64,000 nucleotides of DNA from Nitrosopumilus sp. (GTDB lineage Archaea > Thermoproteota > Nitrososphaeria > Nitrososphaerales > Nitrosopumilaceae). Positions within the stretch are counted from its first letter, which is position 1, and each line of letters begins with the position of its first letter. Position numbers and translations under genes: made by a program. The notes beneath the pieces were generated by a model that was given only the letters and a program-made list of their open reading frames with translations, was not told the origin of the DNA and made no database searches. The stretch spans positions 736,001-800,000 of the forward strand of contig OZ240211.1 of assembly GCA_965197525.1 (NCBI GenBank), given 5' to 3'. Below are positions 2,021-3,788 of the stretch, one piece after another.

Positions 2021-2496
2021 GATTAATTTGGATTATATATCGTATTTAATGTATTAGATACTTTGTGTATTGGGATTGTCCACATGTTTTGAAAGACTAT
2101 AACCAAAATAGGACGACGATTGTTGCTGTTATTATATAGGAGAACAAGAGACTGCTGCTAGGAGTGAGTTCAAAAAAAATAGGGCAACACAACTCGCTAT
2201 AAAATTCAATTGTGCTTCAAGATATGCCAAACTGACATATAGAATCAACACTGTCTGTAGGTACAACTGATTACAACATAATACCAGAATAATTAACAAA
2301 AAAATACAGGTAACATGATAAAAACAATCAAAAATTACAAATAATTTAATAATTCAAGAGACGCAAAACTGTAGGGATAAAGTATAAGATTGGCGTATAA
2401 TGACTATAAAAAAAAGTCACATGTACGTAGATAATGATAATACTTGCTATCGGTGGTTCTGTGAAGTTATCGAGGGTTATCTGTTAATCCCTAAAT

Positions 2497-2504
2497 TGTA
2501 TAAA
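2497..2504 (+). promoter_or_regulatory. Candidate TATA box for leaderless tnpB
   Basis: TGTATAAA 23-30 nt upstream of the TTG start at 2527. Confidence 0.4.
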
Positions 2505-2526
2505 CCTCTAAACCGTAAGATATTCG

Positions 2527-3720
2527 TTGAAAGCGATAAAGTCATTATCACAGAAATATACGCCAAACTCTGATCTAATGGATATGATGGCTATATTCAC
2601 AAAGATGGTCAATCATTGCATCAAGACAGGATTGAAAGAAGACACTCACAATATGAAGAGGTTGTCCATATTATGTTATCATGAATTACGTAATTATGAC
2701 ATCCTGTCTTCATACAAACTAAATGCAATATCACGAGCTGCAGGCATGTTATCAAACAGAAAACAATCAATCAAACGAGGTGTCAGAATAAGAGACCCAA
2801 TAGTCAAAAATCCCTTTATGACAAACTGTTACGGTATACGACACAGCGGTGCACTATTAACAATCCCATACAAGAAACATAACCCAATCAACATTTTACT
2901 CAACGTTCACACCCAAAAAATCCTATCTGATCCCGCCTTGACGGTGCGCTCGTTTTCATTGACTGCTCTTAACATCAGTCTTTGTGTTTCAAAAACAGTA
3001 CAAGAGATAGAGTGCACCAATCAAGTGGGAATAGACAGAAACCTAAGAAATGTGACGTGTGGGAACGAGAAAGAGGTGACAGTCTACAAGACAAACAAAC
3101 TGTTATCCATAAAGGAGAACACAATACACGCCAGGGCAGGATTCCACAGAAATGATCGCAGAAAGAAAGGTCAATTCTGGAAACAAAGACAGAGACGAAT
3201 GAGCAATAGAACAAAGCAGTACATCCACAGAATCTCAAAGGATATGGTATACAACGCAGTCAAAAACAAGACTGCAATCGTCATGGAAAACCTGAAAGGA
3301 ATAAGAAAATTGTACCGAAAAGGAAACAGTCAAGGTAACAAGTACAGGCGTAGATTGAACGGGTGGCAATTCTACGAGTTACAACGCCAAATAGAATACA
3401 AAGCCCAATGGGTCGGGTTGCCTCCAGTCAAGACAGTAGACCCAAGAAACACGAGCACGCAGTGTCCACGATGCGGAAAGAGACTCCAAGAGGACATGCA
3501 ACAACATCGTAAAATGTCGTGTAATAATTGCGGTTTGTTTATGGACAGGGATATTATCGCTGCCATGAACATATCACGCAAGCTGCCCCCTAGGTTTAGG
3601 GGTAGTAGAGATGACATAGATGAAGCGCAGTCCGGCACTTTTGAGCCAGCGATGACGGAACCCGGCACACCATTGGTAATCCGAATAGTCGATATGTCAA
3701 AGTCAAGTTATAGGGGTTAA
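2527..3720 (+). CDS. tnpB: RNA-guided endonuclease TnpB (IS200/IS605/IS1341 type), 397 aa
   Basis: RuvC-I VGIDRN, RuvC-II IVMENL, Zn ribbon CPRC...CNNC, RuvC-III MDRDIIAAMNI; catalytic D/E/D intact. Confidence 0.93.
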   Translation: MKAIKSLSQKYTPNSDLMDMMAIFTKMVNHCIKTGLKEDTHNMKRLSILCYHELRNYDILSSYKLNAISRAAGMLSNRKQSIKRGVRIRDPIVKNPFMTNCYGIRHSGALLTIPYKKHNPINILLNVHTQKILSDPALTVRSFSLTALNISLCVSKTVQEIECTNQVGIDRNLRNVTCGNEKEVTVYKTNKLLSIKENTIHARAGFHRNDRRKKGQFWKQRQRRMSNRTKQYIHRISKDMVYNAVKNKTAIVMENLKGIRKLYRKGNSQGNKYRRRLNGWQFYELQRQIEYKAQWVGLPPVKTVDPRNTSTQCPRCGKRLQEDMQQHRKMSCNNCGLFMDRDIIAAMNISRKLPPRFRGSRDDIDEAQSGTFEPAMTEPGTPLVIRIVDMSKSSYRG

Positions 3721-3788
3721 CCCTCGATAACTTCACAGAACCCTATCGGTAATTCTTAATATCGGACGTTAGTAGCCTCAGAGTATAG

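Follow-up and report, generated by a model that had tools for sequence, protein, structure and literature searches.

The 64,000-nucleotide stretch of the genome of Nitrosopumilus sp. analysed in the present work (contig OZ240211.1, positions 736,001 to 800,000 of the forward strand), which is referred to as the window and numbered from its first letter, contains a mobile element of 1288 bp (window 2455-3742) in which the gene for an RNA-guided nuclease, TnpB, lies between perfect 25-bp inverted ends starting GGTTCTGT. TnpB is the ancestor of Cas12. Its role, as accepted, is cleavage of the donor joint which IS605 or IS607 elements leave behind, without a scar, when they excise. The evidence assembled here favours, with reasonable but not strong confidence, a different arrangement, in which a non-autonomous IS6-like element with a complete OMEGA module (from obligate mobile element-guided activity) is moved in trans, and its TnpB homes into empty sites which lie next to a W-T-R motif (W, A or T; R, purine). 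The direct basis for this interpretation is the anatomy of the element, its target-site duplication (TSD) and the corresponding empty site, the family of copies in the genome, the lack of other types of TnpA, the ends shared with transposase-encoding elements, the covariation in the predicted RNA, and a one-sided motif at the landing sites which is absent at autonomous elements.

Anatomy of the element and its nuclease

The two arms of the terminal inverted repeat (TIR), at 2455-2479 and 3718-3742, are each 25 nucleotides long, are 100% complementary and have the first letters GGTTCTGTGAAG; the 25-mer occurs at two places in the window, both of them arms of the element, with 0 occurrences expected (100 shuffles). 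An exact 8-bp duplication, CTATCGGT, directly adjoins the arms at 2447-2454 and 3743-3750. Between the arms there is a single long open reading frame (ORF), tnpB, at 2527-3720 on the forward strand, which encodes 397 amino acids, begins with a TTG start codon after a spacer of 47 bp from the end of the left arm at 2479, and has a stop codon, TAA (3718-3720), with which the right arm begins. The space from arm to arm is thus filled by tnpB, and a second gene does not fit. An earlier reading made from the letters of the window alone (the sequence-only reading) had described an intact tnpB as the sole gene between perfect 25-bp repeats with an exact 8-bp duplication, and had measured the same 47-bp spacer; the spacer is correct, and the description is borne out by the sequence, by family models and by the RuvC motifs.

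The spacer contains a TATA-like box (2499-2504, forward strand) approximately 26 nucleotides 5' of the TTG start, and a box at an equal distance from a conserved TTG start is found in all subfamilies of the element and in the miniature inverted-repeat transposable elements (MITEs) derived from it. Because the box stands at this distance in every subfamily, matching the usual spacing of archaeal promoters, it is likely that tnpB is expressed as a leaderless transcript from an internal promoter.

The product of tnpB matches the Pfam model Cas12f1-like_TNB (PF07282) with 74.7 bits (cut-off 26.3) and the NCBIfam model guided_TnpB (NF040570) with 123.5 bits (cut-off 100), and it aligns with solved Cas12f and TnpB chains across the RuvC-II/III and zinc-finger part. 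The three RuvC motifs are present as GIDRN (D170), MENL (E254) and DRD (D342), together with a C4 zinc finger of the form CPRCG...CNNCG, and the long open frame with all three RuvC motifs is kept in 31 of the 34 full-length copies in this genome. The RuvC D-E-D triad and the family-model scores identify the protein, by prediction, as a TnpB/OMEGA nuclease.

Copies in the genome and empty sites

The genome, which consists of one contig of 2,210,164 bp with 39.6% G+C and which is found in public runs that include sponge metagenomes, contains 16 copies of the studied element at 94-100% identity (subfamily A) and about 20 further full-length tnpB elements at 76-87% identity in five or six subfamilies, for a total of about 36 full-length elements, as well as about 13 short derivatives of 140-650 bp. 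TIRs of the GGTTCTGT type are found on all of the full-length elements and short derivatives. When a TSD is defined as an 8-bp duplication matching at 7 or more of 8 positions, TSDs are present in 27 of the 42 elements which can be oriented by tnpB or by its 3' remnant; these 27 duplications are all different, and the insertions were therefore independent. Insertion of other copies without 8-bp TSDs had been proposed as an outcome which would speak against the sequence-only reading, and the other copies also make them. The elements without a TSD (e.g. those at genome positions 296603, 528374, 598949 and 642464) mostly keep TTR on the left, from which it follows that the right flank is the side that changed, and adjacent deletions are a possible cause.

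Sites without the element were found when public contigs from three runs belonging to three studies (X1, X4 and X5) were aligned onto window 1900-4300. A 263-bp contig of run X1 joins position 2446 to position 3743 across the 8 shared letters, with a depth of 19.4 as against 17-20 on the flanks, and its flanks agree with the window nearly letter for letter. The site is also empty in a 24-kb contig of run X5, from a strain diverged by a few percent, and in a 3.3-kb contig of run X4, from a diverged strain, both of which resume at 3743 with one copy of CTATCGGT. The sequence-only reading had proposed a search for empty sites with a single copy of this octamer, and the contigs of all three runs contain them. 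The CTATCGGT duplication is a real target-site duplication which was made on insertion, and the existence of element-free contigs with a single copy indicates that the insertion is recent and polymorphic. For the flanks of the other copies, the loose contig ends in X1, X4 and X5 were too mixed to be read.

The diverged empty allele in run X5 has CTG instead of TTG before CTATCGGT (in the region 2433-2446), and it would lack the recognition motif proposed below.

Further members of the family lie in the window. A MITE of 487 bp (87-573, forward strand) has both TIRs, with identical 24-nucleotide ends starting GGTTCTGTCGGG, and retains the tnpB promoter, the first tnpB codons and the core of the predicted guide RNA; it has no tnpB and no TSD, and TTA stands on its left. 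A tnpB copy of subfamily C at 42338-43569 has a degenerate left inverted repeat, a decayed derivative of 655 bp at 44991-45645 contains the guide RNA core, and a subfamily-A copy on the minus strand begins at 63984 and runs past the window end at 64000 (genome 799984-801272), with the TSD CAAGCACG and TTA on the side upstream of its tnpB.

The predicted guide RNA

The guide RNA of an OMEGA system (omegaRNA) was modelled from an alignment of the last 270 nucleotides of 25 elements, in which six subfamilies were represented, together with seven MITEs and with seven elements of other genomes. The consensus structure has 26 pairs in four helices, with compensatory double changes in 18 pairs. Standard pairs fill 96% of the cells, compared to a mean of 79% and a maximum of 82% in column shuffles, none of 1000 shuffles reaches the observed pairing on any of three measures, and sliding the 3' partners by 1-3 columns leaves 26-40% of the cells paired. 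In the studied copy, this predicted structured core of four covarying helices lies within the 3' end of tnpB (3582-3699, forward strand). It is followed by a variable hairpin and then by the right inverted repeat (3718-3742, minus strand), whose last eight bases, ACAGAACC, are invariant or nearly so and which would also form the 3' end of the omegaRNA scaffold. An omegaRNA scaffold is accordingly placed by this model at the 3' end of tnpB, where it reaches the right end of the transposon, and by analogy with TnpB biology the right TSD copy and its flank (3743-3762, forward strand; a length of 20 nucleotides is assumed) are predicted to be the guide segment.

With a profile of the omegaRNA core, 51 copies were located in the genome, of which almost all lie inside a repeat pair and 36-102 nucleotides from the right end. 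What the short derivatives retain is the left end, the omegaRNA core and, from tnpB, the promoter and first codons, and they look as guide-only elements using TnpB in trans would. An Rfam scan of 2300-3900, with E-values up to 1, returned no family. Contigs of a sponge metatranscriptome run (X6) align to 2455-2541 and 3036-3745 and none to 2548-3033; such contigs show neither level, ends nor strand, and the gap at 2548-3033 is not used as evidence. One RNA-library contig begins at 3675 and, at a related copy, crosses the right end and enters the flank.

The ACAGAACC end is also retained after distant tnpB genes which have no left repeat. In other families of the order (loci L040-L047 and L097-L111), many tnpB genes at 38-49% identity have ACAGAACC located 10-50 nucleotides after the stop codon, and within 10 kb of ten such right-end-only genes there is no left inverted repeat or transposase, except in genomes G002 and G292. 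Two pairs of these loci (L099 with L108, and L102 with L107) are alike between species across the whole 3.6-kb locus, which indicates that the right-end-only copies are ancient and have been passed down vertically. The end that they keep may function as the 3' terminus of an omegaRNA.

A one-sided motif at the landing sites

With the 27 TSD-intact elements placed in the orientation of tnpB, the triplet which immediately precedes the left TSD on its 5' side is TTA in 10 cases, TTG in 10, ATA in 4 and ATG in 3, so that all 27 have T at position -2 and a purine at position -1. The information at positions -3, -2 and -1 is 0.9, 1.7 and 1.0 bits, and it is near zero within the TSD, farther upstream and in the right flank. 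At the mirrored positions to the right, the motif is present in 3/27 cases (Fisher 4e-12 against 27/27 on the left), while the background frequency of W-T-R is 8.8% in the genome and 11% in the local flanks. The nine youngest copies, which are at least 98% identical, all carry the motif, the MITEs also have W-T-R, and it is found at elements in other genomes (loci L002, L012, L029, L039, L048 and L096).

Autonomous IS6-like elements with exact TSDs provide a comparison set in which the motif is present on the left in 0/12 and on the right in 1/12 (Fisher 1e-13 against the tnpB elements), and a second TSD-intact autonomous copy in this genome (genome 1956395-1960520), which is outside the 12, has the motif on neither side. 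The motif is found at the tnpB elements and not at the autonomous elements, and it is therefore tied to the TnpB/omegaRNA module rather than to the transposase family. It was considered whether the motif derives from a host promoter or transcription start, and this was rejected, because positions 26-34 nucleotides upstream carry no information and AT-richness is limited to a weak stretch at -12 to -7.

The position of the motif corresponds to that of a transposon-adjacent motif (TAM). Read along the sense strand of tnpB, the unoccupied site of the studied copy is TTG (2444-2446, forward strand), then CTATCGGT, then the right flank, and this order of TAM followed by guide-matching sequence is the rule established for IS605 TnpB (PMC8612924). 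In the filled site, the left junction matches the guide over 8 nucleotides only and the right junction is preceded by ACC. W-T-R sits exactly where the TAM of a TnpB should lie, which suggests that the motif is the TAM, with TTG as the candidate in the studied copy; at the level of sequence pattern, a conserved TAM-like motif stands 5' of the guide-matching sequence. The sequence-only reading had held that the usual role of TnpB does not obviously apply to an element of this type. The one-sided W-T-R beside the left TSD contradicts that statement, as a TAM-like signal located where homing would need one.

The candidate transposases

Scans of the complete genome with the models for the Y1 transposase (PF01797) and for the serine recombinase of IS607 type (PF00239) gave 0 matches, with positive results in the control genomes (six for Y1), and mobilisation of the IS200/IS605 or IS607 type is therefore not available. 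The conclusion of the sequence-only reading that the element is not of the IS200/IS605 type agrees with this result and with the 25-bp TIR and 8-bp TSD. The ends of the tnpB elements are of the IS6 type, and a GG start and a CTGT motif are found at both ends in all tnpB subfamilies.

An autonomous IS6-like element is present in the window itself, at 10475-12444 on the forward strand (1970 bp), with 30-nucleotide inverted ends starting GGTTCTGTGTAATCTTCG, the 8-bp duplication CTATTGTG and two more copies in the genome. Its transposase (10963-12099) has 378 amino acids, matches the Pfam model DDE_Tnp_IS240 with 42 bits (cut-off 27), and has IS6 as by far its best NCBIfam model, over the full model length and with 102.8 bits, which is below the cut-off of 125. 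Because of this score and of an extra N-terminal zinc-binding domain, the transposase is called IS6-like by its sequence, rather than a proven member of IS6. Homologues are found in 57 of 151 sampled genomes of the family and in 20 of 27 genera, and the transposase is also present in all five family genomes with this TnpB that were sampled for IS6-like transposases. The autonomous relatives are 2-3.3 kb long with varied extra ORFs, and those with readable ends, from 12 genomes, have GG(T/N)(T/N)CTGT repeats and exact 8-bp TSDs in 12 of 12 cases. In the element at 10475-12444, about 490 bp (10475-10962) lie between the left end and the transposase start.

The ends of the autonomous element are identical to those of tnpB subfamily D over the first 18 of 18 nucleotides, and they share the first 9 nucleotides, and 15 of 25 overall, with the studied copy. 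The sequence-only reading had named the 10963-12099 transposase for a transposition assay in trans, and on this specific enzyme it was overstated. The kind of ends agrees and another subfamily matches over 18 nucleotides; since only 15 of 25 positions match the studied copy itself, this transposase and its paralogues, among them one at 89%, are putative candidates for the mobiliser. No IS6-like transposase lies within 10 kb of the ten tnpB loci surveyed. Mobilisation in trans by IS6-like transposases, as a prediction from the ends and the duplication length, is well supported. The related claim of a non-autonomous DDE element moved in trans holds in that the element is non-autonomous and TIR-bounded, with ends and TSD like those of IS6-like elements, and is weakened in that IS6 membership is unproven given the score below the cut-off. 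Replicative transposition of these elements is assumed; several mechanisms would account for simple insertions and an exact empty site.

A locus in genome G002, of the same genus (L048:422-3224), was considered as an autonomous element with both TnpB and a DDE_Tnp_4 transposase and was rejected as a nested IS5-like insertion. The tnpB element there, with a 51-nucleotide TIR and the TSD GCTGTTCA, is split at 1473-2958 by a 1486-bp IS5-like insertion, whose gene has its own inverted repeats at 1473-1491 and 2940-2958, and the case is judged to be nested because these repeats are of the type which bounds nine IS5-like copies in this genome.

Beyond the autonomous element, and adjoining it, a 401-amino acid protein of the Fic/DOC family with Fic_N and Fic domains is encoded at 12566-13771 on the minus strand.

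Proposed mechanism and alternatives

From these observations we infer the acting transposase, the production and loading of the RNA, the identity of W-T-R as the TAM, and cleavage with homing. An IS6-like DDE transposase encoded elsewhere in the genome (10963-12099 or its paralogues) would bind the GGTTCTGT ends, and insertion by an 8-bp staggered cut would produce the CTATCGGT duplication. Transcription from the tnpB promoter would read past the right end, so that the omegaRNA would gain the right TSD copy and its flank as a guide. TnpB with this omegaRNA would recognise TTG, or W-T-R in general, as its TAM and would cut empty copies of its own insertion site, and repair from the filled copy would convert the cut sites; this is homing, a role which has been shown for IS605 TnpB (bioRxiv 10.1101/2023.03.14.532601), and it would be independent of excision by the transposase. 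The short derivatives, with their ends, promoter and omegaRNA, would use TnpB in trans. Only 8 nucleotides match at the left of the filled site and ACC precedes the right junction, and the element would therefore not target itself. Homing would be open only to insertions next to W-T-R, which is roughly one in ten, and the 27/27 count would be the footprint of that advantage.

Several observations weigh against this mechanism. TSDs are lacking in 15 of the 42 oriented elements, and reciprocal flank exchange among these 15 was looked for and not found, so that the absent TSDs are not explained in this way. Three more distant relatives (loci L005, L016 and L037) have TTT or CTA in place of the motif. 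The presence of the motif in all nine youngest copies is not obvious if homing selects only after insertion, and a homing filter in a purely clonal lineage would be weak. The transposase scores below the IS6 cut-off, no transposase element in the genome has ends identical to those of subfamily A, and none of 30 IS6-like transposase loci contains tnpB, which means that the link between transposase and tnpB rests on the ends only. The RNA-library contig across the right end of a related copy is a weak hint of omegaRNA expression which comes from one metatranscriptome and could be DNA carry-over.

The motif in the nine youngest copies, together with the dependence of a homing filter on recombination between lineages, is the reason why target choice by TnpB is retained as a rival explanation. 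W-T-R would then be set at insertion, with a TAM-bound TnpB, carrying its RNA or not, joining in target capture, and with the DDE transpososome integrating across the adjacent 8 bp, left end towards the TAM. Steering of this kind would fit the location of the motif, which abuts the TSD and, relative to tnpB, never changes sides, its presence already in copies at least 98% identical, its lack at the autonomous IS6-like elements, which have no TnpB, and the retention of the left motif by most of the TSD-less elements. It is nevertheless thought unlikely, because there is no precedent for a TnpB which steers a DDE transposase guide-free and no contact between the proteins is known, because the tnpB-less MITEs have the motif too (although TnpB could act on them in trans), and because a homing filter gives the same counts if the population recombines. 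There is a similarly small chance that TAM recognition by TnpB helps to choose the site of DDE integration, such that the TSD is the stretch beside the engaged TAM and the element is born with a usable guide; if this were true, these elements would represent a minimal precursor, independent of the guide, of nuclease-steered transposition as in CRISPR-associated transposons.

The motif could instead be an asymmetric target preference of the particular transposase that moves these elements, with TnpB a passenger which has another role or no current role. The lack of a known transposase with subfamily-A-identical ends in the genome leaves room for this, as does the small size of the autonomous control set (12 plus 2), of which only two copies come from the clade closest to the tnpB elements. 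A DDE enzyme which acts on identical inverted ends is normally symmetric, however, and the mirrored side is at background; the counts of 0/12 and 1/12 were obtained at autonomous elements that span 39-100% transposase identity; and the location of the motif exactly at the predicted TAM position, with clear conservation of the tnpB frames and of the RNA structure, makes a passenger TnpB improbable. Much less probable again is a secondary landing, in which an IS1341-type tnpB element of the IS200/IS605 group inserted into an IS6-type MITE, to which the ends and the TSD would belong. MITEs with the same ends do exist in the genome, and many distant tnpB genes in other families retain only the right-end ACAGAACC with no left repeat, but the stop codon lies inside the right repeat, the promoter begins 20 nucleotides after the left repeat, and no IS605 ends fit. 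The same layout is found in all of the approximately 36 copies of six subfamilies and in relatives in other families, down to 31% protein identity, and the MITEs keep the tnpB promoter, first codons and omegaRNA, and are for this reason regarded as deletion derivatives of the tnpB element and not the reverse. A MITE at this locus in relatives had been named in advance as a finding that would overturn the sequence-only reading, and the locus in relatives is empty rather than MITE-occupied; on this ground, on the layout and on the lack of Y1 TnpA in the genome, the secondary landing was rejected. The mechanism of homing after insertion by an IS6-like transposase in trans is retained as the preferred explanation.

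Comparison with known systems

The association of TnpB with DDE transposons is itself known. Inverted terminal repeats are found in all of six branches of TnpB, DDE-1 to DDE-6, and solo TnpBs whose ends are almost the same are described as mobilised in trans by transposases (Altae-Tran et al. 2023, PMC10691335). A 2026 review lists ISL2, IS630 and IS1031 as the DDE partners of TnpB and raises two questions, that of the rarity of OMEGA modules in DDE transposons and that of the way in which a TAM-dependent nuclease can work with a transposase without target specificity (PMC13565253). The view expressed in the sequence-only reading that the pairing had not been described does not hold for prokaryotic TnpB with DDE TIR transposons and solo TnpBs moved in trans, which were published in 2023; only the IS6-like partner appears to be undescribed. 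The literature search, which did not extend to the supplement of the 2023 study, found no description of TnpB paired with the IS6 family and no paper on TnpB together with Nitrosopumilus, and a survey of thaumarchaeal mobile elements leaves TnpB unmentioned (PMC6563490). What therefore appears to be new is the partnership with an IS6-like transposase, the geometry of TAM, TSD and guide, and the difference from autonomous elements.

Compared by branch description, the studied element has in common with the DDE branches a TIR-bounded TnpB and solo copies which share ends with transposase elements. As in those branches, the 3' end of tnpB is less than 250 bp from the transposon end and the solo copies are proposed to move in trans. 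The partner here is IS6-like, with 8-bp TSDs and GGTTCTGT ends, and is named in neither PMC10691335 nor PMC13565253; some elements of the DDE branches encode TnpB and transposase jointly, in contrast to 0/30 and 0/10 loci here; and neither the TAM-TSD-guide geometry nor the contrast with autonomous elements is described in that work. The IS1341-type tnpB-only elements (e.g. ISDra2 TnpB, PMC8612924) share the protein family with its RuvC D-E-D triad and zinc finger, an omegaRNA at the 3' end of tnpB which reads into the right flank, a TAM 5' on the left, and MITE-like derivatives that retain only the RNA. They differ in having asymmetric hairpin ends and no TSD, whereas the studied element has perfect 25-bp TIRs and an 8-bp TSD which separates the TAM from the left end, in a genome without a Y1 transposase.

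The IS6/IS26 family and its MITEs (Varani et al. 2021, PMC7986276) have in common with the elements described here the GG start, the CTGT motif, the 8-bp TSD and the IS240-type DDE domain, and both a zinc-finger extension, in clade h, and MITEs are known in that family, in which a passenger gene is listed by the same review for a single member and tnpB for none. The present transposase, at 378 amino acids and below the NCBIfam cut-off for IS6, differs from that family, and the cointegrate route is only assumed for these archaeal elements. Fanzor in eukaryotic TIR/DDE transposons (PMC3627910, PMC10530073) is likewise an RNA-guided nuclease of the TnpB lineage carried as cargo by a TSD-making transposon, but the system described here is archaeal and non-autonomous, with a compact and typical TnpB and another partner family.

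The dozens of independent insertions in one genome constitute a natural test case, in which the copies of the transposase itself land anywhere, while every TSD-intact copy which bears TnpB or a guide lies beside a TAM-like motif on the correct side. It can be tested in this system whether homing is by itself a sufficient benefit for a DDE transposon to carry an RNA-guided nuclease, and whether the W-T-R bias arises at insertion or later. The system also provides a compact archaeal TnpB of 397 amino acids, for which a short T-T-R TAM is predicted and the omegaRNA is defined. Elements of this type are routinely counted as IS200/IS605 in annotation, which is corrected here. The architecture of the element is real, widespread in archaea and directly testable. 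It bears on the question of OMEGA modules in DDE transposons, and in relation to the DDE-associated TnpBs it builds on a concept already published and does not establish a new one.

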